From the NCBI GenBank assembly GCA_964187785.1, contig OZ076418.1, forward strand, positions 34,596,001 through 34,660,000: a stretch of 64,000 bases of DNA. The letters are read 5' to 3'. The notes beneath the pieces were generated by a model that ran no database searches, had not been told where the DNA came from, and saw nothing but the letters and a program-made list of their open reading frames with translations. Of this stretch, positions 26,621 to 64,000 are shown one piece after another (within the stretch, counting starts at the first letter, position 1; the number at the start of each line of letters is the position of its first letter). The stretch is from Amphiscolops sp. MND2022 (lineage: Eukaryota). The position numbers and the translations under genes are program-made.

Positions 26621-26630
26621 GTTGTCAATT

Positions 26631-26760
26631 TTTGGGGCACGAGCTTTGGGAGATGCCCATATGGTGACCTCTTTGGTGCACGAGCTTTGCGAGATGACCA
26701 TATGGTGACGTTTTTGGGGCACGAGCTTTGCTAGATGCCCATATGGTGACGTTTTTTTCG
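26631..26760. repeat. 41-bp tandem minisatellite x3 (x2 in the duplicate at ~30040-30120)
   Basis: GCACGAGCTTTG..AGATG.CCATATGGTGAC at 26637, 26678 and 26719. Confidence 0.9.
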
Positions 26761-27414
26761 CAGATTTCGTGACATGTGCCAATTTTTCAAATTTGTGAGG
26801 CAAATTTCTCAAAACCCAGAACAGATACGGAAACCATGTTTTCGGTAAAAACTGCGCAAGGTCCTAGGCTACATTTTCGCCGAAAAAAGTGTTCGAAAAA
26901 AATTCGGCTTCAGGGGTTTTTTCTAAAAGAATTTTTGAAAAAACGCTATTTTTGACTATTTTTCATATTTGATCCCCTATATCTCAGAACTGGGACCGAA
27001 TACAGGGTCCATGGTTTCGTAAAATGTACAACCGATACCTAGGCAACGTTTTGGCCTAAAAACGACGTCAAATTTTTTTTCAAACTTGATGTTTTTGGGC
27101 AAAAAAGAGGACCAAAAAAATTTCGAAAATTTTTTCTCATTCGTTGCTCATATTTCTCAAAACTGAAAGAAGATATAGAAACCGTTCTTTTTCGAGAAAA
27201 ACAGCATAGATATGGGCTACTTCTTGCACCAACAAAGTTACCGTCATCAACTATGACGCCTTCGTTTTTCTGCCGAAAAAACTTCATTTTTTTCAAATAA
27301 ATTTCTTGGTTCTTTTTTACTTGAGCTCGTATATCTCATGACCGAGACCAAATATGGGGTTCATGGTTTCGTTAATTTTATGATGATTATGTAGGCCACG
27401 GTTTAGGCTAAAAG

Positions 27415-29815: not shown

Positions 29816-30029
29816 GTATGTATGAACCAGGTTAATTTTCGAAAATCAGATTCCTCTTCATCTTCGTCTTGTTTTCGTCTGGAAATCCGTGACATTAGTT
29901 CCTCATTATTCGGTTGTGTGCCTTTCTCGGTATGGTATTGTTGTTGCAGTTAGTGTCCGAGAATCAAAGTCAATTTTGAATGAATTGTCGTTCTTTACGG
30001 TAATCACTGCATGATTTACAAAACACAGT

Positions 30030-32870
30030 TGTCATTTTTTGGGGCACGAGGTTTGGAAGATGCCCATATGGTGACGTCTTTGGTGCACGAGTTTTGCGAG
30101 ATGACCATATGGTGACGTTTTTTTCGCAGATTTCGTGACATGTGCCAATATTTCAAACTTGTGAGGCAAATTTCTCAAAACCCAGAACAGATACGGACGC
30201 CATATTTTCGCTAAAAGTTGCGCAGGATCCTAGGGTACAATTTCGCCGGAAAAAATTTTCAAAAAAATTTCAGCTTCATGGGTTTTTTTGAAAAGAATTT
30301 TTGAAAAAACGCCTCTTTTGACTGTTTTTCATATTTGATCCCCTATATCTCAGAACTGAGACCGAATACACGGTCCATGGTTTCGTAAATTGTACAAGCG
30401 TTTTATAGGCTACGTGTTGGCCTAAAAGTGACGTCAAAATTTTTTTCAAACTTGGTGTTTTTGGGCAAAAAAGCAGACCAAAAAAAAATTCGAAAAATTT
30501 TTTCTCATTCGTAGCTCATATTTCTTAAAACTGATAAAAGATACAGAAACCGTTCTCTTTCGAGAAAAACAGCATAGATATAGGCTACTTTTTGGACCAA
30601 CAAAGTTACCATCATCAAGTATGACGCCTTCGTTTTTCTGCCAAAGACTTCAATTTTTTTCAAAAAAATTTCTTGGTTCTTTTTTACTTTAGCTCGTATA
30701 TCTCATGACCGAGACCAAATATGGGGTTCATGGTTTCGTTAATTTTTACGAGGCTTGTGTAGGCTACGTTTTAGGCTAAACTTGATGTCAATTTTTTTTC
30801 GCTCTGGATTTTTTAAGCAAATAGGGTAATGAAAAAATTTTTCTGAATTTTTTCCATTTTTTTTCCAATTTGTAGCTGATATTTCTCAGAACTGAAATTA
30901 GATACGAAAACCATTCTCCCTCACAAAGTGAGGCAAGTATGTTGGTTTTTTATTGTACTGTCAAAGTTTCCGTCATGAAGTATGACGCCTTCGGGTTTCT
31001 GCCAAAAATTTATTTTTTCATTTTTATCAAAAAAGTTTTCCTTCATCTTTTCAGCTCTTTCTTCAAAATATCCTCATCTGAGACTGGATAAGTTCACAAG
31101 GTTGTGGGCCCTGGAACACGAAGGACTTGTAACACCTTCTGCAGACCATTGAACGTTTCTGCTCGTGCCCAAGCGCGACATGCGGTCGCGCCTATGTTTT
31201 TTTTCGCAGATTTCGTGACATGTGCAAATTTTTCAAACTTGTGAGGCAAATTTCTCAAAACCCAAAACAGATACGGAAACCATGTTTTCGGCAAAAACTG
31301 CGCAAGGTCCTAGGCTACATTTTCGCCGAAAAAAGTGTTCGAAAAAAAATCGGCTTCAGGTGTTTTTTCTAAAAGAATTTTTGAAAAAACGCTATTTTTG
31401 ACTATTTTTCATATTTGATCCCCTATATCTCAGAACTGGGACCAATAACAGGGTCCATGGTTTCGTAAAATGTACAACCGATTTATAGGCAACGTTTTGG
31501 CCTAAAAGTGACGTCAAAATTTTTTTTCAAACTTGGTGTTTTTGGGCAAAAAAGAGGACCAAAAAAATTTCGAAAATTTTTTTTCATTCGTAGCTCATTT
31601 TACATTTTTTCATTTTTCTCAAAAAAAATTTTCTTCAACTTTTTAGTTTTTTCATCAAAATATCCTCATCTGAGATTGGATAAGTTCACAAGGTTGTAGG
31701 CCCTGGAACACAAAGAATTTGTAACACCTTCTGCAGACCATTGAACGTTCCTGCTCGTGCCCAAGCGCGACATGCGGTCGCGTTTATGTTTTTTTTTCGC
31801 AGATTCCTTGATATGTGCCAATTTTTCAAACTTGTGAGGCAAATTTCTCAAAACCCAGAACAGATACAGACACCATGTTTTCGCTGAAAGTTGCACAGGA
31901 TCCTAGGCTACATTTTCGCTGAAAAAAAATTTCGAAAAAAATTCGGCTTCATGGTTTTTTTTCAAAAGAATATTGAAAAAACGCCATTTTTGACTATTTT
32001 TCATTTTGATCCCCTATATCTCAGAACTGAGACCGAATACACAGTCCATGATTTCGTAAATTGTACAAGCGTTTTATAGGCTGCGTGTTGGCCTAAAAAT
32101 GACGTCAAAATTTTTTCAAACTTGGTGTTTTTGGGCAAAAAAGAGGACCAAAAATTTTTCGAAAAATTTTTTCTCATTCGTAGCTCATAATTCTCAAAAC
32201 TGATAAAAGATACAGAAACCGTTCGAGAAAAACAGCATAGATATAGGCTACTTTTTGGACCAACAAAGTTACCGTCAACAAGTATGACGCCTTCGTTTTT
32301 CTGCCAAAGACTTCAATTTTTTTCAAAAAAAATTCTTGGTTCTTTTTTACTTTAGCTCGTATATCTCATGACCGAGACCAAATATGGGGTTCATGGTTTC
32401 GTTATTTAATGAGGCTTATGTAGGCTACGTTTTAGGCTAAAAGTATGTCGAAGTTTTTTCGCTCTGGATTTTTAGCAAATAAAGTAATGAAAAAATTTTT
32501 TCTGTAATTTTTCCAATTTTTTTCCGATTTGCAGCTGACTTTTCTCAGAACTGAAAATAGATACGAAAACCATTCTCCCTCACAAAGTGAGGCAAGTATG
32601 TAGGCTACTTTTTGTACTATCAAAGTTTCCGTCATGAAATATGACGCTGTCAGGTTTCTGCCAAAAATACATTTTTTCATTTTTCTCAAAAACAATTTTC
32701 CTTCATCTTTTTAGATCTTTCATCAAAATATCCTCATCTGAGACTGGATAAGTTCACAAGGTTGTGTGACCTGGAACACAAAGAATTTGTAACACCTTCT
32801 GCAGACCATTGAACGTTTCTGCTCGTGCCCAAGCGCGACATGCCGTCGTGCCTATGTTTTTGCTTTTTGA
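30030..32870. repeat. Compound tandem (satellite-like) array; a partial unit also lies at 26759-27413
   Basis: Unit start CGCAGATTTC..GACATGTGC at ~30126, 31206 and 31798 (spacings ~1080 and ~590). GTTCACAAGGTTGT...GCCCAAGCGCGACATG module at ~31093, 31684 and 32755. Confidence 0.9.
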
Positions 32871-33654
32871 TCGTGCTGGACTAAATGACTTAGTTTAGCT
32901 CATTTGTGAATCCTGGCTTCGTGTGGATTGGTGCCAGTCTGCTTTTTGTTTTAATTATTTCACCCCTTTTTTCACAGTTAAAGATCCGTCAATGTCAATG
33001 ACGGTTGTGTTGAATTTCAATGATTTCTTTTTCACACCGAGTTTTTTTTTATTCTGTCTAACCCTAACGCAGGGTTCGGTGTTTTCGATGGTATGAGAAG
33101 TTCGCGGTGATGAATAATAAAATTCTACGTCTTTGGCTGGTTTAATTGTAAATTCGTGAATGTTACTACTGTTCATGCATTTGTGTTTGATTATAATAAA
33201 CTAGCTTGATTGTTGTTGTGTTGTTGAATTTGCACGTTGCGATTAGTGTTACCCGACTAGAGCTGTCAACAATAAAATCTTCATTTGAACTGGATGCTTG
33301 TTTCTCCTTGATTTGGTTTATGAAATATTTGATATTTGATATCTTCTTTGGCGTTTTTGAACGTTTTTCAGCTTTTTCATAAATATACTCATGGAAAGTT
33401 TCTGTAATTGTTACAACGGAAAGTCGCTTCGTTTCATTTTCCGTTGAATTCATAATCGGCGGTGGTGTTGCCAATCTGCGATCTGAAATTCAGCGCTAGC
33501 ACTTCCACTGGTATTATTCCTTCAGATTCACAGCGTTCTCTCACACACAAAGATATTTCCATACATCCGCTGACGTGGTTTCGGCTCCTTTTGGGTCCCA
33601 ATAAAATTGGTCCGGCTGTCTTTGGTCCGGAATTTGTTTTTTTACGGTGTGGAG

Positions 33655-40054: not shown

Positions 40055-40366
40055 AACGGTGTGGTAAATTCTTTAAACAACTCCTCGTTTCGTTAGCTTT
40101 TTCAATGGGAGCATGTTGGAAAGCCTCTGATGTCCCCTTTGGTGATGAATGCTTGTCGAAGAAGTTTCGGCCACTTAGCCTTTCGGTCAAAACAAACACT
40201 CTGAAAAAAGTGTATACACTTTGTTTGTTTTGATCGAAAGGCTAAGTGGTCGAAACTTCTTCGACAAGCATTCATCACCAAAGGGGACATCAGAGGCTTT
40301 CCAACATGCTCCAAATGAAAAAGCTTACGAAACGAGGAGTTGTTTAAAGAATTTTACCACACCGTT
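40055..40366. mobile_element. Foldback MITE / near-perfect 312-bp palindrome
   Basis: Arms of ~145 bp (AACGGTGTGGTAAA...CAAAACAAACA vs TGTTTGTTTTG...TACCACACCGTT) around a ~22-nt centre. Confidence 0.9.
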
Positions 40367-44412: not shown

Positions 44413-47400
44413 TTGGGAATCAGGAGAAAAAAGGGAGGAACCACAACACACCAGAAGATAACATTGCCAATGTTCGAAAGAAAAACCATTCAAGAGGCAA
44501 AGTTATGGTGGAGACGATTCATACAAGACGTCAAGATGACGCACAAAATCGATTCAAACAGAATGACAACTGACAGAGAAATCATAGAAGAGCACAGAGA
44601 AGAACTGGAGATAAAAATATAAGATATTTTTATCTGGGTTCTAGGAGAAGAAGCAGTAACCGAAATGACGAAAACAGTGAGAGACAACTACCCGCACAAA
44701 ATGAAAACAAACCTGTTATATTCACTATTCCGCCTCCACTTCATCCCAGAAAGGAACAAGTTTCTTAGTCGGGCTGATTTTTTGGAAAAGTGCGAGAACC
44801 GAATGAAACAGCCGAAGACGTCTGGACTAGATTACTGCAGACAGAGAAAAAATGTGAATTCGACAACGTTACACCAGCCGAGCTTACCGCATCGAAGTGT
44901 TTATCAGTTTTTATCGGAAGATCAACCGGAGATTATGAATTGAAGAAAAAGATACGGAAGAGCAACATGACCATTGAAACAATCACCGATCTAATCCACG
45001 AATATATGTATGACCGGTTGAATGACTCAAACAACTCGAATGACGGAAGAAATGTGAAGCACGATACAAGAAAGGCCACAAAAGAGAAAATGGTCAGAAA
45101 TATCCGGATACGAAAGAGTTAAAAAACGACCGGAATACCAGAGACAAAAGCACAAAGACAACCGTTGCGGACAATGTGGAGCACCAAACTGGTCAAGACA
45201 ACTCGTGTGTCCAGCCAGAACGGTAGAATGCCGCAATTGAAGAAAGAAAGGGCATCATGAAAAAATGTGTAGACTCTCGAAAAAGATCCAATACGTCGTT
45301 AAAGCAACATCTTCGGGTGATGAAGGCAACTGGGACTACAACAAAATACAGAGTATTAACAAAAACAACAAGACGAAAGGAGATTTTTTCACGTAACGCT
45401 ATTGGTCAATTACGTACCAAAAAAGTTTGAAAAAGACAGCGGATCACTGTTACACTAATACATCAACACTGCTTCAATGAAATCTCAGATGTGAAAAAAT
45501 TAAACACCAATTACAAATATGTAAACGCTAACAAGATTGAGTTCCTGGGACAAACAAAAGCAACGGTAAAAACAAATTACACGACACTGCAACTACCACT
45601 ACTAAATGCCAAAGCCAATGCAACACCGTTGATGTGACTGGGTTGGATGAAACGGCTTGGAATAGCACTCCACACGTCAACGGACAGTATCAAAATACAA
45701 ATAATGAAACTGGACGACACTGAAGAGAAAATCCTAAAACTGAAGAACAAATTTATTTGTTTATTTCAAAAATGTTGAAGATAAAATTTCCAACAACACC
45801 GAAACACAACTTTGTCAGTGACAAAAAATCTGAAAAAAGACGCAAATATAAGACAACAGAAAAGCAGACCAAGACCGATACACCTAAAAGACCAAGTAGC
45901 CGATGAAATTAAGCAGCTATTAAAAAATCGTTACTTGGAAAGAGCAACCGAAATAATCGAAGGCTGCTTCGTGAGCCCTGCAGTCATCAGGGTAAAGAAA
46001 GACAAAACGTATAAAATTGCCATAGACTCAAGAAAATTAAACGAAGCAACAATAAAGAGGAAAGCCCAGATGCCAAACATGGAAGAACTAAAATCAAGAA
46101 TATCACCGAATACTACCGTTTTCTAAAGGGATTCTACGGACTGGCAGATATACCAACTGTCTTCCAATAACCGATCGACAAAACATTAGAATTCAAACAC
46201 CCCGCTTGGTTAGATGACATCAAAATATCATTACGATACACGTAGCGGTAAATTGGATTTCAGTCACGCAGCGTAATCTGTGTAATCCGTAAAATGGTCA
46301 TTCAGCGTAAGTTAGTCAAGACGGTCTATGCTTCAACGGTTTAGCTGTGTCAACTCGCGTAATGGAAAATAGTGTAAACTAGTCAAAGCACGTAGTTAGT
46401 GAAAAGTGGGAGTCCAAAAATACTCTTTTTCGTAATTCAGTAAAAACTTTGACTAACTTCCACTTTTTGCAAATTGCAGATCGCTATACTTGCAATAAGT
46501 GGAAGTTAGTCAAAGTTTTGACTAACTTACACCATGTTTATATGCATTCAAAACTCAGTGTTCATTTTAATTCTAATTCACACCACAGCATCGTAAACCA
46601 GTCAAAGTAAACAATGATTCAATAAATAATTAGTTATCATTACTAAGCTCTACCGTGCATAGTACGTATAAACTGCATTCAATGCAAGTTGCACACGTGA
46701 ACACGTGTTTAATCCACACATTTACGTGCAAATAAAATACCTTGTAGCTTCTAATTTGTACAATTATAACAATTGATTGATCTGTCAACAGGTTTCCTAT
46801 TTTAAGGAAACATAATTTCAAAGCAGCCCTCATTAATACTTGCCTAACTAGTTTTAATTTTGGTCCCTGTCGTGACACGGTCACTGGAAGGATTGGTCAA
46901 CTTGTTATTTTGGTCTGGGTATTTTGAGCCAGGGTATTGACAAGGATCTATTTTGATCCCTGTCGTGAGCAACATCAAGAAAAGTTGTAACAAATAGTCT
47001 ATACGAAGTTGAAACTTTATCAAACCGAAAACAGTAGTTTATGGAATACCGATCTTGAATTATTGAACTAAAAACGAAGTTTGGACCATGTGCCTAATCC
47101 TCCCTCAGATAAATACTGTTTCTTATCCATTAACACCCCCCCCCATCCAAGTCTTCCCAAACAATTGAAAGTAGGTCTCATAATGAAGGGGCGATTGCTT
47201 CATTGAACTTGGTAATTTTGGTCCCTGTCGTGAGCACTTCCATTAGTAGTCAGATTTAATTGTTTATGCGATTTGAAACTGTATATGCGAATCAAGCAGT
47301 GTAGTTATGAGTCGGCGTGTGTAACTCACCAGTAACAACCCGTAATTACCAGAACTATGTGTAAACATGAGATGCACAGTGTAGTTAGTCAAATTGCTTA

Positions 47401-51800: not shown

Positions 51801-53128
51801 AGCCATTGGAATAGCCGCAACTTTGTGTTGACCCGATACAGCGAATCAACTTGCCAACACTGAAGCTACTGACTAGTTAAAAAACCCATGTAATCTACAA
51901 CTATTTATTCGTCTATTTATTGATTAGTCCGTTGTCAAAACAAGTTGTACAAGCCTTTAATTTATCTTTATTAAAGTGTACAATTTGCTCAAAAGGAGGG
52001 AGGGGTAATGTGGAATGTGGCATAAATGAGTTGAAGGTCAGAAAGTCATGCAATTCTAAATAATCATATATGACCGCTTTTATGTTATGTAATGTACCTG
52101 CCACAATGCTGACGTTTATTGTAGGTAGTATTATACATAGACACAATCACATACGATCGACCAAATTCAGTATTACATTCCCTACTTTCTTATCTTTACT
52201 ATATTCAACAACACTAATTAGTTGAAAGTGCTCAAACATTTAATATGTGTTTTGATTTTTTCATAAACTGCTTGGAAGTTCTTTCGGGTGGATAGTAGTG
52301 GATCGACTAGTGTAGATATCGAGTTTCAAGACGACCAACTTGTTTAAATTACATTTCGAAGTTTTTGACAAATGGACATGGGATATTCTTTTCACTGTGT
52401 ATTAGGAAAACCGTGCATTCAGGGGCAAAGCGTCGTGCCACTATCTGAACACAACACCAACACTTTTTCATCTCGGTTGACTTGGATCAGCGCGCATAAT
52501 GCTTGGCACACAGATATAGTCTGTCCGCAATTTTAGTTCTTGACTTCGTAGGGTGTGTTTTGTTTCCGAATATCAATTGTTCGATTCTTTATTGTTGAAC
52601 TCTAGACTGGTAACCAGCAGAGAACAGCGGACTACGCATCAGTGATCCTACATATCTTTTGTCTCGAGAAAGTATGAAATTTAAAACAATGACAAAATTC
52701 AGTAAATTCATGTAGATCCACATGAATTTACCGAATTTCGTCATTATTTTAAATTTCATACTTTCGATGCAGTATTCCAGCAAAACATGTTACAATGACT
52801 AAAATTCTTATTTAGTTTCTTCAACGTCTGCATCAACAAAATGAATCGAAACATCTATTTATTCTTTTGGCCAATGCGTGTTTCCGATCTTCAAAAAGTA
52901 AGGCAGATTTTAATTATTCTGATGAGAAATTCTAGTTTTATATGCACCTGCAACCACTTCCCTTTTACTGATCCAGTTATAATTTATTGATGGTCCCAGA
53001 TATTCCGAAAAAAACCATGCAATGGGATTTTAAAAAATTTTTAAAAGAATGTTTGTGGTCATAAAACGAAAAGTCAAAAAGTACTGAGGAAGCAATAAAT
53101 GCTGCAAATTTTCGTCCTGAACAACATT

Positions 53129-53346: not shown

Positions 53347-54705
53347 ACATTGAACAGCTTCAAACACCGAGAAGAAAACCAAAATGCTCAATCGCCATTC
53401 GTATGTTCTTTACTGAATTTTTACTGCCCAGACCTTTACTGATTTTTATCCTTCTAGAAAATAACTTTTCAAAGAGTAGTCATGATATACTATAGTAGTG
53501 GCTAAAAAGTGACATGTAAGCCTTCAAAAGCAAATATTTATACTTTTTTACAAGTTTTATAGAGTTTTATACATCTCAGCCGCCTCATTAAAACAACTGG
53601 CGTGAAAATTAAGTTTCGATTAATATTTTCAAAAGCTTGACAGTGATTTGCTCCATTTCAACCTTTTATCAATCAAATGTCATAAATGGATATTGCAGTT
53701 TCATGGGATTATACGGACACCCGAAATTACAATGGTTTTTTTACACATTTTTACCAATTTGTAACTTTGTACTTGATACCGAGCTCCATCCACAGAATTC
53801 AGCAACAAAAGAGAAGATTGGTAGCATAATTACTTAGAGTTGAAAAACGTGTTATAAAATTGCTAAAAAACGAATAAGTTCTTCTGTGAGTGTTATGAAA
53901 AATTCTCCGAATTTTCGTTGTTGAAAGGAATTGAGGGAAGAAAGTATCGATAGAAAACGGAGACTATAGTAGCGGCTTTTCAAAGCCAGATTTTGAAACT
54001 GACAGATTTTCAAAGTTTCTGGAAGATTTACTTTCATTTTCACTTTACGGACGGAATGTTTCTCATCTTGAAGTCGTCAAAGCAAGAGCAGTGTAAAATT
54101 TTTCGTATCCTGGGAGAAACGTCTCTAGGAAATGTTGAAACATCATCAGAGAAACAAACATTTTTTCACTCAATACAAATACAATGCTAAATACAACTGA
54201 AGTCACAGGTGGAAAGTTTAAAAGTCACTTTTTGGGACATAATTTGACAGAAATCTGATGAATTTCTGAGAAGCTCAGAATATTCTTGAAAAGCATCGTG
54301 CAATATCTCAAAACTAGCTGTCAGACATAAAACATCCCAAGAAAAGCTCTGTAGCCTTGATACTGTGCTTCAATTTTTACCCTGATTGTTGTCCGAAAAT
54401 GTTTTTCAATGAACATCCGTGAACAATTGTAACAGCATATGAACATTATATTCACAAACATTTTAAGCAGTTGCATTTTCTGCTCGTTTTGTGATATATA
54501 TCAACACAATCCTTCTTTGCCCCTTCTTCTTCCTCCTCTCAAGGAAATCCAACAGCGTTTTCCAACGTCATAGACTTTAATTGGACACCGTGTCTTCGTG
54601 GACATCAATCGCCAAACTTCTTGTCCAGAGCTGTCTTCCCTGCCATCCCGTCCGCTTCCAACTGCACGCAACACAACTTCAACATCTTCTCACATCAAAA
54701 TCCAA

Positions 54706-54922
54706 GTAAGTCAGTTGATCTTGAGTTTCCTTTTGTTCCAATATATATTTTGAATTGAAATTAATGCTTGATCAGAGCTCTCATTTCATTCACGTACTTC
54801 CTGTCCAAATAACACAAGTGTTCACAAGTGTTCAACGTAGTCTGCTTCCGGAAGACTTTCATACGCGGAATATTGGTTCATACAGGAAGTTCACCGCTAA
54901 CCTTCATTTTGTTTCTATTTAG
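54706..54922 (+). other. Predicted spliceosomal intron in the 5' UTR (217 nt)
   Basis: AA|GTAAGT donor, GCTAAC branch site (~54896), pyrimidine tract, TTTAG| acceptor 2 nt before the ATG at 54925. Confidence 0.7.
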
Positions 54923-54924
54923 AC

Positions 54925-57266
54925 ATGTCGTCCAATGAAGATATAACTCCTGGAAACCCAACCAAGGAAACAACCAAAAATCAAACAACGGCAGAAATCG
55001 CTAAGGAAGCTGTTCCAAATGAAAATGCCCCTACTGGACGATCTCCCTCGTCGAATTCAAGTGGGTCCAATGCCGAAAGCCTGAGTGCTTACGCTGAGCG
55101 GACCGTGGCTACCATTGTCCAGAGAGACAACGAGTCTTCCGAGCCACTTCCCAAGAGTGCTGCCCAAATTGAAGCCGAGCCAAATAATGTACTGTCCCAA
55201 AAAGAATCAGTTTCCGACCTCATGGAGATCAGCACTCCCCTGACAACAGATGCAGTAGAAGAGACCAATTTGGGAGGAGAGGATTTAGAGGATACCCCTG
55301 GACACTTCGCTCAGGACCCATACTCTACTGACACGAGCGAGTTCGGGGAATTACTTGATGGATCAGGAGTTAGTGGTCCTACTCTACAGGGCGCCAACAA
55401 CATTTTCGTCACACTCCCCTCGCCATCCTCAGGAGATGACGCTGAAGCAAAGAGGGGGAATTCAAGCAGCGACGATTTGCTAGATGAACCACTCAGCACA
55501 AGCAAAGCTACCGCTACACCCAGGCAGCTTTCCATCACCGGGCGAGCAGCTTTACGCAAATGCTTCACGGAGAATAGACCCATCGATATTCCCGTTAGCC
55601 AACCTGTCATTGCCCTAAGTGAAGGGCAGATGCATACGGTCCTTCGCACCATCTCGGACGAGTCACTCCTTTCATCTTTCCATTTGATGAAATCCCTGCT
55701 CCTTCAAGCCGCTGACGGAAAAGTCATCTCGAAAGAGCGTTGTCGCCATGTAAGGCGTGCCGGCACTCCAGGCCCTGGACAACAATCTAGCTCTGAAGGA
55801 GAAAGCAGCGGGGAAGACTGTGCAAGCGGCAGTTATACAAGTGGTGCCATCAACTCAGATGACGCTCTAGATAGTTTGGATTTCCATATCGAGCACAATT
55901 ACTCGCCAACTTCGCCTAGCTTCAGACCACAATCTCAACCGACCAGAACTGCTACTCCAATGTTGCCAACAAGTCCTGGTAGTGGGTACAGCGCCGAGGA
56001 TTATGCCCCATTGGCCACATTATTTCCCAAATCCACAGGAAACAAGACCCCAACTAAACCAGCACGAAAACGCCAGAAAATATCCGGACGACCAGGGAAA
56101 GTCATGAAGGAGTCCTACTTCAAAGGAATCAAATGGACTAAAACTTTCGTGACTGGGCCTTTGGATCCTGCCCACAATCAACACAAGTTCTATTGCCAAA
56201 TTTGTAAGACCAATGTTTCCATCAAGACAAAAGGGGCGCGGGAAATCATCAGACATTATCAAGGCGAGGCTCATCTGAGGAAAGACCAGAGATGGCGCTT
56301 TGAACACTTAAGCGTGACAGATAAAGTGACTGGCATCACTCGACACCAGGTCCGGGGAAAAGACGGACGAATCTTGACTCCTTTGGAACTTGAGCGAGAG
56401 AAACCCCTCTTTGAAAATGCACCACAAGTCGACGTGGGGGAGAGGTACCACTTTTATGATGAATATTTAGCCAATTCGGAAGGACAGCAGACTACAGAGG
56501 ACCAGCGTGCCAGCGTTCAAATAGCTCTCGTTGGGAATTTTGTTCCCTACGATGGCAACATCTCGCTGCTACAGACATTGTGGTCCCAAGTAGGGGAATA
56601 CATGAATCACAAAGAGCAGTTCTCCCCTTTTGATTGGAGTTCAGCCACAATGACAGTAAGTCTCTTTCTTTTGGTGGTTGAAATGAGGTTCTGCTTTTTC
56701 CATAGCTAACAAGATCTTTCATTTTGGTTTAGGTGATATCTCATCACATCTTTACCTGTGCCATTGAGGATATGTCTCACCACATTGCTCTGAACGACAT
56801 GTATGCCCTTGAGTTTGAAGCAACCGGAAGAAATCAAACTATGTCAGTCCGTTTTTGGAAAGAGAACACCTTGGTCCGGGTCCCGTTGTTTCGATGTCCT
56901 TTGGTTGCCGGGTTTCCCTCCAACTTCATTACGGGACTGTCTCGACTCCTTTCAGTCATCTCTTTCAAGCCTGGCCTCGTGAGCGTGTCCGGTTGTCCCG
57001 CTTCTCTGGTTCGGACCTTGGACAATTGTGGTTTATTCTCACGCGGGGTTCAGTACCCATTTCGATTCGACGTGCTGTCTCTGCAGGCCTTGATGTACAA
57101 AGAAGGAGGAAGTGTCTTTGGGCCAATGGATTTTTTCTCACAATTGCGATATTTGATCGTGTTCCTCAGCGGCATTTTGACAGAGCCCTGGACGCTGGAA
57201 TCGCCTGAACTGACAAAGGACTTCAATACCTATGTGAGCCTCGTGACGATTCACCATCCTCCATGA
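54925..57266 (+). CDS. Spliced 754-aa protein (exons 54925-56655 and 56733-57266): disordered N-terminus, C2H2/BED-like finger and degenerate hAT-transposase-like core
   Basis: Both ORFs are intact and join in phase 0 (577+177 aa). Finger FYCQICKTNVSIKTKGAREIIRHYQGEAH and NLS-like ARKRQK. YALEFEATG...MSVRFW resembles the hAT first-catalytic-Asp strand with the Asp lost. Confidence 0.8.
56656..56732 (+). other. Predicted phase-0 spliceosomal intron (77 nt)
   Basis: ACA|GTAAGT donor, GCTAAC branch site (56705-10), TTTAG|GTG acceptor exactly at the start of ORF 56733. Confidence 0.85.
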
Positions 57267-57598
57267 ACACGTCAATGGAAGCGGTGGCAAGTCATTTCGA
57301 CGAGATGGTCCTTGCCGAGCCACCCTCCTTAGTCAACTACTCAGACTGCGTAGTATGCGGGAAATCAGTCAAACAAATTCAAGAAGAGACCGTCAACGAA
57401 TACCTGGACAGGACAGTAACTGTAGGAGAGACTTTGGCTGAGACTCAGGCAAGGAGGAGGGCATTCCTAGATGGCATGAACGCAAACGCTTTTCTACTTA
57501 TGCCAGGGGGAGTGTCGCGGGCTGCCGCCTGCGACGGCAATTGGTACTCAGTCGGATACAACTACAGTACTCTCCCTGGTACCCTCCCAATGAACTGA
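57263..57598 (+). CDS. Small 111-aa protein with a CxxC motif, overlapping the upstream stop (ATGA)
   Basis: ATG 57263-65 overlaps TGA 57264-66. Intact ORF with DCVVCGK and coding-like composition. No recognised family. Confidence 0.65.
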   Translation: MNTSMEAVASHFDEMVLAEPPSLVNYSDCVVCGKSVKQIQEETVNEYLDRTVTVGETLAETQARRRAFLDGMNANAFLLMPGGVSRAAACDGNWYSVGYNYSTLPGTLPMN

Positions 57599-57755
57599 GG
57601 AATGGACTATTAGTCCAAAAGTCTAAGAAGACAAACTATAAACTTATCTTATTGTGATTGATTTCGCATATGTTTATATAAGTATATCATTTTATTCGGG
57701 GCTTTTATATTAATGAAGTTTGAAACGCTTTGGAATAATTATCCGGAACTAGCCA

Positions 57756-59242
57756 TGTAAAGTATGTAGTTGAAAATTGAATATAGCGTATTAATACATG
57801 TATAACAGTGATAGATATATACCACGGTTGAGAAATTGGACACCAAGGCGTACAGGTAAAGGAAACGAGTTCAAATGTTTCCTTTCCTGTCTCGCTAGAC
57901 GCGCTGTCCGTCCAATTTCTCAACCAATCACATTGTTCATTTGCTCGCTCCTGTGCTGTATTCTAAATTAAAGGACTCAAGGGCCACACGCCACCACAAC
58001 GACGCTACTCTTGTATTAAATAAAGACGCGTGGACACTGAGTCCAAAGTAGAATAAAAGAAGTGCGTATATTGAAATTGATAATGTACTATCTCAGAAGC
58101 GGTATATTTACTCTGATTGGAGATCTGTCACCTTGTTTACAAAAGGACCATTAGTCTTTCCCCCCTCTTTTGTGTTCTCTTATTTTCCAGAACTTCCTGG
58201 ATAGAAAGTCAAAACGAGCTGTTTGTATCTTAAGAAGCCACAAAGGACAGCTTAATGTTCACACACCATCTTTGCATGTATTTATTTCATATGATTTAGC
58301 ATGTATTGTTTTACATGAAGTGTTGCTACTGAAACTTAATTGGATGGCCTGAAGGGGCACATGTACATCTTTGAATGTAACCACTTCATATATGTAGAAG
58401 CACGTAAATCAATTACGTCATGGTTGTTGCTATTTTAAGTATTACGATAATATACTTGTAAAGACACGTTGTATGTTGTTTTTAGAATACCTGTTACTAA
58501 AATTAGACTGATGACTACCACTATTATGCATGTCATGTTTGGATGATTATAAATAACCGGGACCCGTGGTCCTGGGGACATAATCTTCATACGACAAGTC
58601 ACAGTCAAGTTCGCTGTTATAATACCGAATACAATATTATTTGCAAGCTTAAAGATTTCAATTCAAATTCTTTCCTCTTGCAACAATCTCTCATGCCTTC
58701 TACGAGACGTCAAAAGGCGAAAGCTAGAAAGTCTAGAGAATTGGACATGATGTCCGATATTGACAACTTGGACGTAATGTTAGGTAATGGGAGTGAAAAT
58801 CCCATAGAGAGAGAATTAACTGAAGCAATTGAACAATCTTCAGTTCGTAGTGGCAGTGAGGCTAATCTGTACCAAAGGGATGAATATAGAAACTTCTCCC
58901 ATGAGAATAGTGAGTACAGGCAGAACGATGTTAGGCAGTCCTTTGAAACTTTCTCAAATGAATTTAATCTTAGACTGTCTCAAGAAGTGGATTCCATGAT
59001 GGCCATGGTACATAGTCAAATAAATAGGGCAATCAGTACTGCCATATCAGAAAAGGTGCTGCCAGAGATTCAAAATATTGTGAGTTCAATGTCTTCCTCT
59101 GGGAACAGGGACACTGAGACTAGCATGTCCCCTAGCAGTCAGGAAAATAGGGAAAATCCATCCGGCTTGAAAACAAAATTATTGAAAAAGGACTCGCGGT
59201 CCGTTGGTGATTTGAGAGACACCGCGGGACGTGGCTCTTACA
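57756..59242 (+). mobile_element. Long LTR (~1487 bp) of a near-intact Ty3/Gypsy element continuing past the window end
   Basis: TGTAA...TTACA terminal inverted repeat, immediately followed by a PBS. AATAAA at 58019-24. The 5' boundary is inferred from the terminal repeat only. Confidence 0.7.
57826..57925. promoter_or_regulatory. Nested stem-loop within the LTR
   Basis: Perfect 16-bp outer stem GGTTGAGAAATTGGAC/GTCCAATTTCTCAACC. Inner stem ACAGG(T)AAAGGAAAC/GTTTCCTTTCCTGT with a 10-nt loop. Confidence 0.7.
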
Positions 59243-60381
59243 TGGTGACAGGAGCTAACGAAGCCCAAAAGCCTATACCTGAATTTCTCACTGGACGAAT
59301 CCACTCAATCCCGAACCTAGAGAGACAGCAATCTAACCACAATGTCTCTTTGGACACCACTCTGCCAGCGCCAGAACCAGAGGTCACAGAGCCGCCTCAG
59401 GACCCGCTCAATAGATTGGCTGATGTACTAGTCAATTTGCAAAATAAACCCCAAACGATGACTATCCGACCTGTCCAAACGACACCTATGACGTTTGACG
59501 GAAAGAGTGAGAAATTCGAACTCTTTGAAGATTTGTTCCACACAATGATCAAAATGCAACCGGCCATGACAGAGCAAATGAAAATAAACCATTTTCACTC
59601 ATTGCTCAGAAAAGGGGCCCTGCAGACCTTCAGGAACATAAACTCAATTAACCGTCAAACACTCGAGGATGTGCTAATCATATTCCGGAGAAAATACGTC
59701 AAACCGGAATCCCAAGCAACAGCAAAACACAAATGGCATCGGCTGACTTTCGATCCGAATACCATGAAATTGCCGGATTTCTTGGAAGAACTGAACCAGG
59801 GGGCAGAAAAAGCTTTCGGCGAAAATGCAAAAAGCATGATTGACAGCTTATTATACGCAAAACTGCCTCCAAAATTGAAACGATCTGTCAATATGGCCCG
59901 CCTGGAGAACGGGACATATGAAGAAATCGTCGCTCATCTTGAAAGAGAGCTTGAACTCAACGCATTAGAAGAGTCAGACGATTTGCCAATCGCCACAATG
60001 GCCTCTGCGTCCACCAGTAACAACAATTTGCTCTCTAATGGCATAAATACTAATAAGGACGCACAATGCTCTTATTGTAAAGCCACAGGCCACTTTTATA
60101 AGAGCTGCCCCAAATTGAAAAAGAAGAAAGAACTGGAGGACAAAAATGGCAAAAAGCCCCAACGTCCTAGATACCCAGAATGCCCTACTTGCGGAAAGAA
60201 AAATCACCCTGTTGAAAGATGCTGGAAAGGGGCTGGAGCACATTTACGACCCAAAAGGACACGTCCTGAGGATAAGGCTGATGACACCTCTGGCGATGAA
60301 AAATCGTCCAAAAAGTCAACTAACCCTGAAACTACAACTTCAGGCCAATCAAACTCACGTAAAACGGACTCAAAAAACTAA
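58693..60381 (+). CDS. gag: Gag (562 aa from MPSTRRQK; ORF open from 58543) with two CCHC zinc knuckles
   Basis: CSYCKATGHFYKSC and CPTCGKKNHPVERC. Capsid-like core FDGKSEKFELFEDLF...HFHSLLRKGALQTF. Confidence 0.92.
   Translation: MPSTRRQKAKARKSRELDMMSDIDNLDVMLGNGSENPIERELTEAIEQSSVRSGSEANLYQRDEYRNFSHENSEYRQNDVRQSFETFSNEFNLRLSQEVDSMMAMVHSQINRAISTAISEKVLPEIQNIVSSMSSSGNRDTETSMSPSSQENRENPSGLKTKLLKKDSRSVGDLRDTAGRGSYMVTGANEAQKPIPEFLTGRIHSIPNLERQQSNHNVSLDTTLPAPEPEVTEPPQDPLNRLADVLVNLQNKPQTMTIRPVQTTPMTFDGKSEKFELFEDLFHTMIKMQPAMTEQMKINHFHSLLRKGALQTFRNINSINRQTLEDVLIIFRRKYVKPESQATAKHKWHRLTFDPNTMKLPDFLEELNQGAEKAFGENAKSMIDSLLYAKLPPKLKRSVNMARLENGTYEEIVAHLERELELNALEESDDLPIATMASASTSNNNLLSNGINTNKDAQCSYCKATGHFYKSCPKLKKKKELEDKNGKKPQRPRYPECPTCGKKNHPVERCWKGAGAHLRPKRTRPEDKADDTSGDEKSSKKSTNPETTTSGQSNSRKTDSKN
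59243..59255 (+). promoter_or_regulatory. Primer-binding site, located inside the gag reading frame
   Basis: TGGTGACAGGAGC directly after the LTR-terminal CA. One mismatch from a tRNA-Leu-type PBS (TGGTGTCAGGAG). Confidence 0.7.
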
Positions 60382-63300
60382 TTTCGCCACGACTCCAAAT
60401 ATGTAACAAGATGTCAGTACGACAGTACGTCATATCTGACCCTGCAAACATTACTTATAAACAAACTCAAAACGACACCACAGGGATGCCATCGACTGTC
60501 TGGCAGCAGCAGATGGCCGACGCCCGCAGAGAAACTCAATATATCATTCACAGTGATCACCCATACCTATATCGACGGAATAGCAATTACAACGACTCTG
60601 AAACTCAATTTAGACCCTTACAAACTGTCGAAGATTATAACCCTCAATACTATGACCCCCAGTATGGCAAAGACCCGTACTGGGACGAAGAACTATATGA
60701 CAAAACAAATTTACAATTTCGAAACGAAGATTACTCTCCAACTGACGACGCGGACGACCCAGACATTGAAGACAACAAACTGTCTCGGGCCCTCATTGAT
60801 CTTTGGCAGCCGAACTTTGAGGCAACTATACAAGAAGTAGACGCCATACACACACAGGAGGACCACAAGGCTCCTAATAGTCTTTTAGACGAGACAGCCT
60901 TCTTACACCTCCTAGTGACCAAAGAAGGAGAATTACCATACGTTCCCCTTTCAACAAACCTTGGACTTAAATTCAAACGACGAATGCTCTATTTCCCAAT
61001 GGACTTTGGGGAATTAACTCTAGATGGCCTGATAGACACTGGAGCTCACTCCAGTGCAATCCCGGAGGCAGACCTCAGGAAAATACGCCTGTTGGCCCCC
61101 CAATCCATTGTAAAAGAAGGTCCTGCCCCATCCTTCCAAATAATGGTCGCAAATGGAGACTTAGAAACCCCAAAGAGCACAGTCGAACTAAAATTTGAAG
61201 TGGGCGACATAGAATTTCACGAAATTTTCATTGTAATGGAAAAACTGTCAAGCCCCATAATTGGACTAATGTTCCTTCAAAGGAACCACACTGTCCTGGA
61301 CATGCGCCAAGGTATACTCAACTTTCCCTACTTCTCGATGCAACTCAAGACGGCTGACCATAAATACTCAAATGTTTTGGAACCCATCCTCAACCCTGAG
61401 GATGTCACAATTTCGCCCAATGACCATGTGGTCATACCCATTCAATCACAAATTTACGCAGAAAATGCAGTTACGGGCATATTGCAACCCAGCGATCTTC
61501 TGCACGAGGAAGGCGACATAACCTTCTGTGCCGCCATAGTCACACTACATGAAGGGGCTATGAGAATACACGTCAACAATTTCACTGATCAACCCTATAA
61601 AATAAAGAAAGGGATGCACATTGCAAACTTTTCAGTGATGACCCCTGAACAGATGAAACACGTCAGGCCAATAGACCCAGTGTCCACCTGGCACTTACTG
61701 AATGAAAATGAAGACGACGCTATTTATTATATTAGTAGCCTTCTTAAAGCTAACAGAAATAATGACCAATACGAACAATATTGGTTCCCGACGCCTGAAA
61801 ACCCAGGGGACGAAACGACCCATACCCCAATACAACAAAGAATTCTCAAAGAATTACGAAACCTGCAAAGTTTAGAACAACTCAACCCGCACGACGATGC
61901 GGAATCTCGTCGAAAATTCCTCAGCAATTTTGATTGGAAGGACTCAATGTTACAACAACATGAAATCAGACAAATAGAAACTCTATTAGTGGAATTCCAT
62001 GACATCTTTGCACGCCATAGATTTGACATTGGCGTCAATGAGGAATTTACGGTCAAACTGACCCCAAAGGACGAGTCGCCTGCTTACAGTCAGAGCCTAC
62101 CTACTCCGGTCAACCTCAAAGAGGACATATTGGTCGAACTGGCATTACTCCATAAATATGGGATTATAACAACACTACCATTCTCGAAGTACGCCAGTCC
62201 AATATTTGCGCCGAAAAAACCCAATGGAAAACTGAGACTGTTGGTGGATTTGCGGAAGATCAATAATCTGATTTCGGATGACTACGTCAATAACAACCAC
62301 CCAGTCAGCACCTTGATGGATGCGGCGCAACATATGGCAGGCAAAAAGCTCTTTTGCAAACTCGACTGTTCCCAAGCTTATCATTGCCTTCCTATGGCAG
62401 ACCAGAAATCGATTGAAATGCTAGCTTTTAACTTCGCCAGCAGGACATTTGCATATAGAAGATTGGCCCAAGGACTCAGTAGAGCCCTGTCGGCCTTCTC
62501 CAGTTTCATGAGAGAATACCTGGATCGTGTTATAAAAGCAGACCAATGTGCTCAATATGTGGACGATATCGGTGTCGCGGCGATAGACGCTAACCAGCTC
62601 GTCGTCAACTTAAGAGCAACGTTCCAATGTATCAGGGAAGCAGGATTGAAATTGTCCATGCACAAGTGCCATTTCGGCGCTACTGAAATTGACTTTCTTG
62701 GGAGAACCATTACACCTGAAGGCGTAAAACCCCAAAAAGAAAGAATCACTAATTTCCTGGAAAAGACGAAATTCCCGAAGTCCAAGAAGGCCCTACAACG
62801 TTATCTTGGTTTCCTCAACTACTACATGAATTATATACCCAGATTATCGGAAAAATTAGTTCCCTTCTTCCAACTGCTCAAGAAGGATGAGAAAGTCCTA
62901 GTGACAACCGAACTAGTTGAACAGTTCAATCAAATCAACAGAGATTTAGACAGGTGCAGTCAACTAGCGCTGAAACAACCACTGCCCAACAAACAGCTAG
63001 TCCTCATGACTGATGCAAGTTTTACGGCAGCCGGTTACGCCATACTGACCGAAGATGACCCAAATCAAAAATACACCTCTGTCAAGAAATCATATGCGCC
63101 AATTGCTTACGGATCAAAAACCGTTACTCCCTCTCAGCTCAAAATGTCGATATACGCAAAGGAATTCCTAGCCATATATTATGCGTTCAAAGAATTTGGA
63201 CATATCTTCTATCTTCTGGGGAACCCCTCAACCTGTGATCATTCTCACAGATAACAAATCGGTCACGAGGTTCTTCCAGACGAAAATAATCCCACCGCCA

Positions 63301-64000
63301 CTCTGGAATGCTTGCGATTTTGTCATTCAATTCAACTTTGTCATAGCGCACATTCCAGGCAAAAATAACACAGCGGCGGACTACCTGTCACGTATGGAAA
63401 TGGACCCTACTGAAAAGTTAGTCCTAAAAATACGTGAAGACGTCGAAACCCGACCGATTGAGGTCAATGTTCAATCAGCGGGAGTATCTGAAGAAGAGCA
63501 GGTCTTCTTTACTGAGGCAGACGATGAGACAGAGCAACAAATTTGGGAACGGAAACAACAATCCAAAAAGGACCTCATAGTCCCTGACACAGTAATCCAA
63601 ATTGACGCTATATCAGAAAATACCGTCGAAGAGATTACTAATTTCACGCAGAAATTAAGAAGAACAAATCAGATACTGCTTGAACAATCCAGAGACCCGA
63701 TTCTCCTCCAATTGAGGGCGAAACTTCAAAAAGAGGAATACTCGGAAGAAATCCTTCAACAGGATATTCGGTACAAGTGTTACTTGAACAACATAGACCG
63801 AATAATCCTCAAAGACGAGATAGTGACGCGGCAGTACTATGATGAAACCGGACAGGTCAAATATCATCAAATCTTATTGCCAAAGCATTTACTCAAAGAA
63901 TTATTACAAGCAATACATGGCACGGCACATCGACACCCGGGCATTTCTAAGATGCTACAGGAAATTCGCCAAAAATACTACTACCCCGGAATTGCAAAAC
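60363..64000 (+). CDS. pol: Pol (protease, dUTPase-like insert, RT, RNase H, start of integrase) with one frameshift at ~63210; truncated by the window end
   Basis: LIDTGAH (61035), LLVDLRKIN, KLDCSQAY, YVDD (62556-67), MTDAS. A 7-nt duplication ATCTTCT shifts the frame. The downstream frame is open to 64000 with NTAADYLSR and HGTAHRHPGISKM. Confidence 0.92.
60372..60378 (+). promoter_or_regulatory. Predicted -1 ribosomal frameshift slippery site A AAA AAC
   Basis: In gag frame immediately before the TAA (60379-81). The pol frame (-1) is open from 60363. Confidence 0.75.

Follow-up and report, generated by a model that had tools for sequence, protein, structure and literature searches.

Positions 54706..57266 of a 64,000-nucleotide window from Amphiscolops sp. 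MND2022 (contig OZ076418.1) raise the question of whether a retrotransposon can carry a DNA-transposase derivative together with its introns. A sequence-only reading had described this stretch as an intact, spliced, hAT-transposase-derived gene in the accessory (env) position next to a Gypsy long terminal repeat (LTR). The stretch is a one-off inverted, 3'-truncated duplicate of an accessory gene of the Gypsy family. According to our main reading, to which we give a probability of about 45%, the full gene lies antisense in its elements and would encode a nuclease-dead, hAT-derived DNA-binding protein, produced from its own spliced antisense mRNA, that binds a word repeated in the LTRs of its clade to keep the elements transcribed.

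The coordinates of the features are given in Table 1. Both introns of the sequence-only reading are found in the sequence (GTAAGT at 54706 and 56656, GCTAAC at 54896 and 56705, AG acceptors at 54922 and 56732), as is the 754-aa frame from the ATG at 54925 to the TGA at 57266. This frame is not the gene of the family. The duplicate is fused via an imperfect 18-nt microhomology to a second open reading frame (ORF-B), and the last 15 codons are ORF-B sequence in another frame, foreign to the native gene. Past 57219, all 29 other loci run on into a third intron and three more exons, and the junction-spanning sequence occurs in the window only (1 of 40 scored matches; 154 candidates). The GTAAGT of intron 1 was correctly seen at 54706, but the nine diverged relatives all conserve a GT 4 nt downstream (54710) and none at 54706; similarly, the branch site GCTAAC of intron 2 is present in the window but not kept in relatives. 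Most other coding sequence of the window had been described as decayed, but this does not apply next to the duplicate, where gag (open frame of 624 aa) and pol are near-intact. The window copy lacks the native upstream region and exons 4–6, and therefore probably yields no functional product. A TATA-like word, a putative promoter element, lies about 300 nt further upstream in the native copy and is missing from the window copy.

Table 1. Annotated features of the window (positions relative to its first nucleotide)
Feature	Position	Strand	Remarks
Non-coding first exon, remaining part	54502..54705	+	Native match begins at 54502, the left breakpoint of the inverted duplicate
Intron 1 (5' UTR)	54706..54922	+	GTAAGT at 54706 particular to subfamily; GT at 54710 is the donor conserved in relatives
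Exon 2, 577 codons from ATG 54925	54923..56655	+	Acidic Ser/Thr/Pro-rich N-terminus, basic NLS-like patch, CCHH finger, helical block
Basic patch, candidate nuclear localisation signal	56065..56109	+	7 K/R, no D/E in 15 residues
Zinc finger C-x2-C-x16-H-x5-H	56194..56274	+	Ligands kept in relatives and both clades
Intron 2, 77 nt, phase 0	56656..56732	+	Absent in protein P0026
Exon 3, 162 codons	56733..57218	+	Predicted RNase H-like core, seemingly degenerate DDE/CxxH positions, conserved Trp
Imperfect 18-nt microhomology junction	57202..57219	+	ORF-B sequence replaces native intron-3 donor
Terminal 15 codons and stop of 754-aa frame	57219..57266	+	ORF-B, other frame
ORF-B 3' part (second, sense accessory ORF; CxxC motif)	57212..57598	+	Ends inside LTR
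Polypurine tract AGGGGGAG	57505..57512	+	
5' LTR, TG...CA, 1,730 nt	57513..59242	+	98.6% identical to 3' LTR beyond window; holds the first 183 codons of gag
RGAC-N5-GTCY, 7 sites in 5' LTR	57604, 57897, 58032, 58145, 58560, 58743, 59190		
Primer-binding site TGGTGACAGGA	59243..59253	+	Complementary to host tRNA-Leu(CAG) 3' end plus CCA
gag	58693..60381	+	Start lies inside LTR
pol: protease, dUTPase, RT, RNase H, integrase start	60363..64000	+	Runs beyond window; frame break near 63.2 kb in window copy
RGAC-N5-GTCY in 5' UTR of the gene	54583..54595	.	Other sites at 54921, 55125, 61673

The native gene is found antisense between the integrase and the 3' LTR of Gypsy elements of 15–17 kb in all 42 elements examined, i.e., 20 close copies, 10 diverged and 10 distant ones, the neighbouring element, and another one at a distance of 16 kb. 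The accessory position next to a Gypsy LTR therefore stands for the family, but not as drawn from the window, as the LTR that starts at 57513 belongs, as 5' LTR, to the gag-pol downstream of it, and the native gene follows the integrase in antisense. With about 1,196 codons and five predicted introns, it includes the C-terminal half that had been thought missing, and its end lies about 260 nt from the stop of the integrase. Downstream of the 754-aa frame, the first AATAAA is at 58019, inside the LTR, and none precedes the LTR, but a possible use of the LTR poly(A) site belongs to a single rearranged copy. Nor is it required that the genomic RNA escapes splicing, because the native introns are antisense to the packaged RNA and hence are copied intact by reverse transcription. 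These three readings are not family features, since all of them came from one rearranged copy. The carrier is a Ty3/Gypsy element with the Pfam order Asp protease, dUTPase, RVT_1, RT_RNaseH, Integrase_H2C2, and rve. Target duplications of 5 bp flank 18 of the 19 close copies with two LTRs, and LTR pairs of close copies are 97.1–99.9% identical; the element in the window has no canonical left junction. Two other identities of the gene were rejected: a single-copy host gene (706 first-look candidates, 40 scored at 92–100%) and an env gene (antisense in 42/42; maximum 19-residue mean hydropathy of 1.01–1.31 for exons 2, 3, and 6).

Intron 2 is confirmed by comparison, as all 16 lineages tested have AG and GT at the borders of the 162-codon exon 3, and the database protein P0026, in which exons 2 and 3 are contiguous, supports it. 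In element f3, the intron-2 acceptor is present and the frame merely reads through. Introns 3–5 have GT donors and AG acceptors in 11/11 lineages, and the identity of intron sequences falls to 26–50%.

What such a protein would do can be approached from its predicted parts and from the DNA of its elements. An ancestral hAT element (or its gene) would have been taken up in reverse orientation, and its introns would for this reason survive reverse transcription. Catalysis would have been lost, while DNA binding was kept and the protein was retained as a regulator. Translated from its own predicted spliced antisense mRNA, it would bind the short word repeated in the LTRs of its own clade, and those elements would stay transcribed. 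The acidic N-terminus may serve as an activation or anti-silencing surface, as proposed by analogy to VANC and TnpA of plant DNA transposons. A nuclease-dead, element-specific transcriptional regulator is the best reading of the protein, and a regulatory role remains our best guess. More tentatively, a Gypsy clade may have domesticated a hAT transposase as a five-intron antisense gene with a silenced nuclease, used as a sequence-specific activator or anti-silencer with a word that co-evolves with the LTRs.

The candidate target of the first clade is the palindrome RGAC-N5-GTCY, with 115 occurrences in 10 lineages compared to 2–32 for other spacers, and 2–7 per LTR where shuffling gives a mean of about 0.06. 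It occurs 4–26 times in each of 15 clade-I elements and 0–2 times in 6 clade-II elements, while AAC[AC]GCAT occurs 11–35 times in the 6 clade-II elements and 0–2 times in clade I; the words were found post hoc, and the match between motif and gene is a single clade contrast. Flanking DNA (27 kb) contains neither word. In clade II, the gene region itself holds many of the sites, some of them within tandem repeats. A third LTR element has its own palindrome (AGCG-N4-CGCT, 9 sites) and no detectable accessory gene. One lineage is poor in sites, and a spacer-6 variant did not account for it. A DNA site is tentatively preferred to an RNA hairpin: the inner positions are complementary in 54 of 145 cases versus 39.6 by permutation, a slight excess among related sites that are not independent, but asymmetric flank pairs favour A..C over G..T (22 vs 7) on the gag-pol strand.

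A possible though rather unlikely alternative is that the dead transposase acts after transcription, tethering the pre-integration complex to chromatin or aiding nuclear import, and that the words are bound by something else. ORF-B or a host factor could bind them, because the two clades differ in gag, pol, ORF-B, and LTR as well as in the accessory gene. The gene is kept in every element examined, its product has an NLS-like patch, and it has been exchanged freely among elements whose U3 and ORF-B are unrelated, as would suit a target without subfamily specificity. However, target duplications show no obvious shared sequence by eye, and between clades the divergence of the accessory protein, about 30 times faster than that of RT, accompanies the switch in DNA word. 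The same clade-specific words and DNA-binding evidence would also suit a protein that binds element DNA but represses it, limits copy number, or lures away a host silencing protein as a decoy, and antisense transcription ending by the integrase could dampen the genomic RNA, an idea put forward for plants (PMC7264820). We consider this unlikely as well: residues 1–200 contain 35 D/E against 12 K/R, which is more activation-like, and the carrier families are young and very numerous.

The protein itself likely descends, as far as structure models can tell, from a hAT transposase that lost its cutting residues. Each ligand of the CCHH finger is kept in about 85–95% of the database relatives that cover it, and in both clades. 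The catalytic positions, located by eye with the help of secondary structure and known hAT motifs, look degenerate: the putative first DDE position is E in 42/43 and the second S in 51/51, with other residues in clade II, and at the expected third position, in exon 6, no conserved acidic residue is seen among aligned relatives. The stretch equivalent to CxxH reads F-D-V/A-hydrophobic among relatives, and CxxH is absent from 21 aligned exon-3 rows. The Trp after the core, putatively equivalent to that of Hermes, is W in 43/46 and in all of these 21 rows.

The AlphaFold model of P0026 has an RNase H topology; the structure models are of modest confidence (mean pLDDT of 58.5 and 65.9). A Foldseek search of 350,542 chains with the core model placed Hermes first (E 2.8e-3, probability 0.91, 410 columns) and again at ranks 7, 9, and 12, and the sole BFVD match below 1e-3 is a viral hAT-family protein (E 2.6e-4, probability 1.00, 325 columns). 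In the ESM Atlas (scores of 0.93/0.92/0.91), hAT families appear from rank 2 on, the named families among the matches listed are all hAT-type, and DUF4371 and ZBED clusters are among the neighbours. For the exon-6 model, 160 residues (3–293) align weakly to Hermes 369–609 in the right order (Z 4.5, rmsd 8.6); Foldseek on the same model gave a best E of 1.2, a second look gave nothing above Z 3.7, and the ESM Atlas returned only TBC-like matches (0.76).

Sequence comparisons gave no such match. Pfam searches of the exons, of 55 and 58 aligned relatives, and of 18 distant exons had no significant result; zf-BED appeared weakly (E 0.048) in 1 of the 18 distant exons, and PF05699 and DUF4371 were not matched in the exons or in the 55/58 relatives. 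No significant match was obtained between PDB sequences and three exon profiles, or between exon profiles and 374 ORFs from host hAT loci, and hhalign scores against host hAT alignments were off-register and within or near the shuffled range. Exon 6 had 0 matches among proteins of 701–2000 aa, DUF4371 had 0 matches in the own genome, where the control was equally silent, and no inverted repeat of at least 60 nt surrounds the native gene. The claim of a spliced, hAT-like, catalytically degenerate gene is supported for the family. For hAT ancestry, the top hAT matches of Foldseek and the ESM Atlas speak in favour but the profile comparisons are non-significant, so that it is supported but weak.

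An origin from another RNase H-fold enzyme, such as a Mutator/IS256-type transposase or an integrase, is distinctly unlikely. Besides the missing sequence similarity to hATs, it can draw on VIA-align, in which the core fits integrases, Argonautes, and actin-like folds equally (Z up to 7.5), integrases and ISCth4 (Z 5.9, 138 residues) score as well as or better than Hermes, and Hermes is not in the best 50 rows for the exon 2–3 model. On the other side, a hAT protein ranks first in both Foldseek libraries over 325–410 columns, and the Atlas families and the exon-6 alignment to the C-terminal half of Hermes point the same way.

It is quite improbable that the inverted copy in the window is an assembly artefact, which would leave the family-level gene unaffected. 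The junction is unique in the assembly, but the join lies at a microhomology, and over 2,718 nt it is 19 substitutions and one small gap that separate the duplicate from the adjacent native copy, a divergence similar to that of the two LTRs of the window element (11 substitutions and 3 gaps in about 1,730 nt; 98.6% identity).

Codon comparisons indicate that the exons of the accessory gene are under purifying selection, with dN/dS of 0.03–0.30 in nearly all unsaturated pairs (0.05–0.30 for exon 2); a value of 0.96 on exon 3 in one close pair comes from very few changes. A passive status of the gene, as a decaying DNA-transposon insertion that the retrotransposon takes along, is hardly credible: 15 of the 21 close copies contain stops, frameshifts, or splice changes (6 are disruption-free) and two distant copies have internal deletions through the gene, but these disruptions are mostly private to single copies, as expected after insertion, and this reading is largely refuted because synonymous sites are saturated and dN/dS lies far below 1, and because splice sites and exon lengths persist between lineages that are about 22% identical.

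Antisense ORFs are known from plant Ty3/Gypsy elements, such as maize Grande gene23, rice RIRE2, and the Retand ORFs (Transposase_28/TRP28 domain), and from Botrytis Boty (PMC7264820; PMC11963269). For gene23, its own promoter and nuclear localisation were shown and a regulatory role was proposed but is unproven; reviews of the plant ORFs describe origin and function as unknown and report no similarity to other transposons (PMC7264820; PMC11963269), and the word “intron” is absent from PMC11963269. The accessory gene resembles the plant and Botrytis ORFs in its antisense location between pol and the 3' LTR, in its conservation, and in being carried by nearly all copies, and it corresponds to the aORF-3R type (this orientation and position, most members, conservation like gag/pol). 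It differs from the plant ORFs by five predicted introns, about 1,196 codons, a CCHH finger, and a predicted hAT-like RNase H fold; PF04195 (Transposase_28) was absent in Pfam scans of the exons and of 55 and 58 aligned relatives. With hAT transposases (Hermes; Buster/ZBED-type, DUF4371), the protein shares the predicted order of finger, helical block, RNase H strands, helical insertion, and C-terminal region, the conserved Trp after the core, and its best fold and embedding matches. Unlike them, its candidate catalytic positions are not D-D-E, CxxH is absent, it is about twice the usual length, its sequence similarity to them is undetectable, and its gene is seen only in LTR elements (42 loci). 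The ZBED family and DREF are domesticated hAT transcription factors encoded by single-copy host genes. The accessory protein would likewise reuse a transposase fold for DNA binding without transposition, but its gene is kept and spread by a retrotransposon.

In Arabidopsis DNA transposons, VANC of VANDAL elements and TnpA of Spm, the latter reported as transposase-derived, are sequence-specific anti-silencing proteins with binding established by ChIP and EMSA (PMC5735166; bioRxiv 10.64898/2026.08.24.746577). The Gypsy family is similar in that an element-encoded accessory protein goes with a repeated short word that differs between related families, here as two clades with mutually exclusive words. 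In contrast to these plant class II systems, a class I element would use a class II-derived protein with putative binding, and the word of clade I has the form of a spaced palindrome. In the published papers covered, few of them from subscription journals, no title or abstract opening pointed to an intron-containing antisense gene of hAT origin carried by an LTR retrotransposon.

The family gives antisense accessory ORFs a traceable origin, which would be a dead hAT-like transposase with its introns still in place, and antisense introns offer a route for a retroelement to carry an intron-containing gene without suppressing splicing. In the LTRs, the clade-specific 13-bp palindrome is a concrete candidate target, for which the second clade supplies a built-in control of specificity. 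Should the binding be true, a retrotransposon would have domesticated the enzyme of a DNA transposon as its own transcription regulator. If the domestication reading holds, this would be a transposon-to-transposon domestication and a retroelement with its own VANC-like system.

The two donors, the acceptors and the 754-aa frame from which the sequence-only reading assembled an intact, two-intron gene are present in the window, but two of the signals are not the conserved ones. In the lineage alignment, relatives share an intron-1 donor 4 nt downstream of 54706, and they do not conserve the GCTAAC of intron 2. A search of the organism's own genome with the gene gave 706 candidates, 40 of which were scored (92-100% identity), including one copy on the minus strand 9 kb past the window. 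The C-terminal half that had been described as lost is missing from the window copy but not from the family: at 29 of 29 other loci fetched, the antisense gene runs on beyond the position matching 57219 into a third intron. In the window, an imperfect 18-nt microhomology (57202-57219) swaps the intron-3 donor for 3' sequence of ORF-B, another accessory ORF, and the final 15 codons of the frame are ORF-B read out of frame. This junction is spanned by the window alone (1 of the 40 scored matches; 154 candidates). The left end, at 54502, cuts the first exon, and the native upstream region is gone. Across 2,718 nt, 19 substitutions and one small gap separate the duplicate from the neighbouring native copy, a divergence similar to that of the element's LTR pair, which favors a genuine, old rearrangement over an assembly error. 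The 754-aa gene as such is an artefact of a single rearranged copy, yet it exposes a real and unusual system.

Downstream of the flagged gene, a 624-aa open gag frame and a pol with protease, dUTPase, RT, RNase H, and integrase domains (Pfam) identify the carrier as a Gypsy element, as had been proposed. The adjoining LTR is the 5' LTR of this downstream element, so the "env" position suggested earlier applies to the native gene before the 3' LTR and not to the window copy. With the next 30 kb attached, the order is LTR, gag, pol, antisense gene copy, ORF-B (sense), and LTR. We compared 42 elements: 20 close ones, 10 at 57-86% and 10 at approximately 22-45% protein identity, the adjacent one, and a distant one 16 kb on. 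The gene or its remnant is antisense and ahead of ORF-B and the 3' LTR in all 42 (two copies are internally deleted and keep a remnant only); pol is present in 41, the remaining copy being 5'-truncated. An antisense accessory gene between pol and the 3' LTR is almost certainly the family layout. Target duplications of 5 bp flank 18 of 19 close copies with two LTRs, and the LTR pairs of close copies are 97.1-99.9% identical, hence the family is young.

Further features of these elements were recorded. The gag frame begins 183 codons ahead of the PBS, inside the LTR, so every 3' LTR and solo LTR holds a gag fragment. The gag and pol frames share 19 nt, where a run of A-AAA-AAC is, judging from its sequence, a likely site of -1 frameshifting. 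The elements (L034-L073, L104-L123) are mosaics: copies with unrelated U3 and ORF-B, and with RT identities of 83-99%, have accessory genes 98-99% identical, and others show the opposite pattern.

Features of the window, its flanking DNA (L031, L032, L033, L186 and L187, beyond its right end) and the organism's own genome (G000); unprefixed positions are those of the window
Feature	Location	Strand	Remarks
GTAAGT donors	54706, 56656		window copy
GCTAAC	54896, 56705		window copy
Acceptors	54922, 56732		window copy
754-aa frame	54925-57266		ATG to TGA
ORF-B	L031:7014-7898; 57212-57598	+ (L031)	~270-295 codons; acidic N-terminus; both clades conserve CxxC and a C-terminal block; Pfam negative; not hydrophobic
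5' LTR	57513-59242		TG...CA ends, PBS after, PPT before; coding-flanked on both sides (ORF-B stops within U3, gag begins within LTR)
PBS	59243		matches host tRNA-Leu(CAG)
pol	60363-63251		dUTPase domain between protease and RT, E 1e-4 (Pfam)
Near-perfect palindrome	L031:1730-1752	-	two TGTA words; begins at native stop codon; in 11/11 lineages
Shared 14-mer	57833; L031:6451	- (L031)	in LTR U3; on the opposite strand, just past a TATA-like word upstream of native gene
Probable solo LTR	L032:2100-4700 (window-extended 76.1-78.6 kb)	-	related family; gag fragment; 8 RGAC-N5-GTCY sites
Second full Gypsy element	L033:1981 to L186:8528	-	distant clade; LTRs 97% identical; own antisense accessory gene; tandem 77-nt repeats in gene region; different repeated word
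8.6-kb element	L186:9429 to L187:8025		788-nt LTRs; 9 copies of AGCG-N4-CGCT; neither this pol nor the accessory gene matches it; nothing clear in Pfam
Nested direct repeats	25100-32900		periods 3.4-kb, 1.07-kb, 41-nt, around decayed retroelement sequence
Hairpin-type inverted repeats	52668-52765, 46432-46530, 40066-40354		perfect or near-perfect; MITE-like
164-aa ORF	16260-16751	+	opens with BED-finger-like sequence by eye; no Pfam match; possibly unrelated DNA transposon remnant
Gene copies spaced 13.5-14.3 kb	G000 C9:14.56-14.62 Mb, C11:38.66-38.69 Mb		suggests head-to-tail element arrays
Dense tandem cluster	G000 C8:35.59-35.63 Mb		tRNA-Leu-like 3' ends; pattern has 940 matches genome-wide, most of those listed being in this cluster

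The native gene carries three further predicted introns (71, 119, and 150 nt), aligned with GT/AG ends in 11 of 11 lineages. Its coding exons of 1731, 486, 135, 82, and 1154 nt give approximately 1,196 codons. Exon 3 (162 codons) is preceded by AG and followed by GT in 16 of 16 lineages from both clades, and in the database protein P0026 exon 2 is directly joined to it. Between lineages, dN/dS is 0.03-0.30 where dS is measurable, many dS values being saturated; exon 3 of one near-identical pair gave 0.96. Introns drop to 26-50% identity between lineages. Among 21 close copies, 6 carry a gene free of disruptions. Since the gene runs antisense to the packaged RNA, that RNA would not be spliced at its introns, and by established logic they would survive without the escape from splicing that had been supposed. 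The palindrome at the stop codon may signal 3'-end processing of the antisense mRNA. The U3 copy of the 14-mer is kept between LTRs that are otherwise unalignable.

The encoded protein has an acidic, Ser/Thr/Pro-rich region (residues 1-200), a basic stretch (381-395), and then a CCHH finger; exons 2, 3, and 6 show no transmembrane-like segment. Of 1.84 billion representative proteins, 496 matched an exon-2 profile at E <= 0.001. The 10 looked up are unnamed ENA sequences, as are all matches to exon 3 (57) and exon 6 (65). AlphaFold modelled P0026 (58 alignment rows) as three strands, helix, strand, and helix, with pLDDT blocks of 74-92 over residues 451-550 and a mean of 58.5. The best Foldseek match of this exon 2-3 model was Hermes transposase among PDB structures (E 2.8e-3, probability 0.91, 410 columns) and, in BFVD, a hAT-family protein of Pandoravirus (E 2.6e-4, probability 1.00; runner-up 1.4e-2). 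ESM Atlas scores were 0.93, 0.92, and 0.91; the best cluster is without a family assignment, and DUF4371, FAM200-ZBED5, ZBED1, DUF659 or zf-BED label the remaining rows displayed, with 18% of members labelled at rank 2, 11% at rank 3, and up to 100% further down. For exon 6, folded separately, 160 residues aligned with Hermes 369-609 (Z 4.5, rmsd 8.6, rank 22), other rows covering 41-68 residues only; Foldseek returned no match for it. The hAT derivation proposed from sequence is therefore favored by structure and embedding matches, but sequence methods (Pfam, PDB sequences, and profiles or hhalign against host hAT ORFs) detected no hAT link. In VIA-align, integrases and other RNase H folds match the core equally well. 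On the predicted models hAT ancestry is probable; another RNase H ancestor, a question independent of function, would agree with the VIA-align result and the silence of sequence methods and is rather improbable.

Catalytic positions were assigned by placing the known hAT motifs on the strands of the predicted model. Where the first Asp is expected, 42 of 43 relatives have Glu; S-G-C stands in place of DGA, with Ser in 51 of 51; and 43 of 46 retain the Trp. Among aligned relatives, CxxH is absent and no conserved acidic residue occupies the expected third catalytic position; clade II has yet other residues. The loss of the catalytic Asp and CxxH noted earlier appears to extend to the family, and such degenerate positions suggest that the protein is nuclease-dead.

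Clades I and II each have their own repeated word. RGAC-N5-GTCY occurs 115 times in 10 lineages, compared with 2-32 for the other spacers in the range 0-12. Each LTR has 2-7 sites, compared with approximately 0.06 in shuffles (0/300 shuffles reached the observed count for five LTRs, 1/300 for a sixth). It is also found in the gene's 5' UTR and in the related solo LTR beside the element. There are 4-26 per element in 15 clade-I and 0-2 in 6 clade-II elements; AAC[AC]GCAT reaches 11-35 per clade-II element (2-11 per LTR) and 0-2 in clade I. Neither word is present in 27 kb of flanking DNA. Between clades, RT shows approximately 0.15 changes per site and exon 3 approximately 4.7. In clade I, the gene has been swapped among elements with unrelated U3 and ORF-B, all of which retain the word. 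From this single clade contrast, the word is a candidate target of the accessory protein. Alternatively, ORF-B, which has a conserved CxxC, or a host factor could bind it. Two further points limit the case for the accessory protein: many clade-II sites are located in the gene region, part of them in tandem repeats, and a palindrome of its own is repeated in a third LTR element that has no detectable accessory gene.

The most likely reading of the whole, with a probability of roughly 0.45, is that an antisense promoter between the gene and ORF-B would yield a spliced mRNA, whose nuclear protein would bind its clade's word via the finger and transposase scaffold without cutting, and that its acidic N-terminus would promote or protect LTR transcription. 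A role as an integration or import factor is unlikely, and one as a repressor or decoy equally so. That the gene is a passive passenger is very improbable.

The native gene belongs to the antisense accessory ORFs between pol and the 3' LTR, together with those of plant Grande, RIRE2, and Retand and Botrytis Boty (PMC7264820; PMC11963269), and not to active hAT transposases; the relevant parts of those papers give the origin and function of these ORFs as unknown. VANC21 is described as binding a short word enriched solely in its own VANDAL family (PMC5735166), and by analogy the accessory system may work like VANC. The available text of a 2026 preprint (10.64898/2026.08.24.746577) presents transposases as intrinsic transcriptional regulators and TnpA as transposase-derived; "retrotransposon" and "LTR" are absent from it as whole words. 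No paper turned up by the literature searches, judged mostly from titles and abstracts, describes an LTR retrotransposon with an antisense gene that bears introns and derives from hAT, and repeat-database annotation may exist. One rearranged copy thus leads to an unusual, family-wide accessory system in Gypsy elements.
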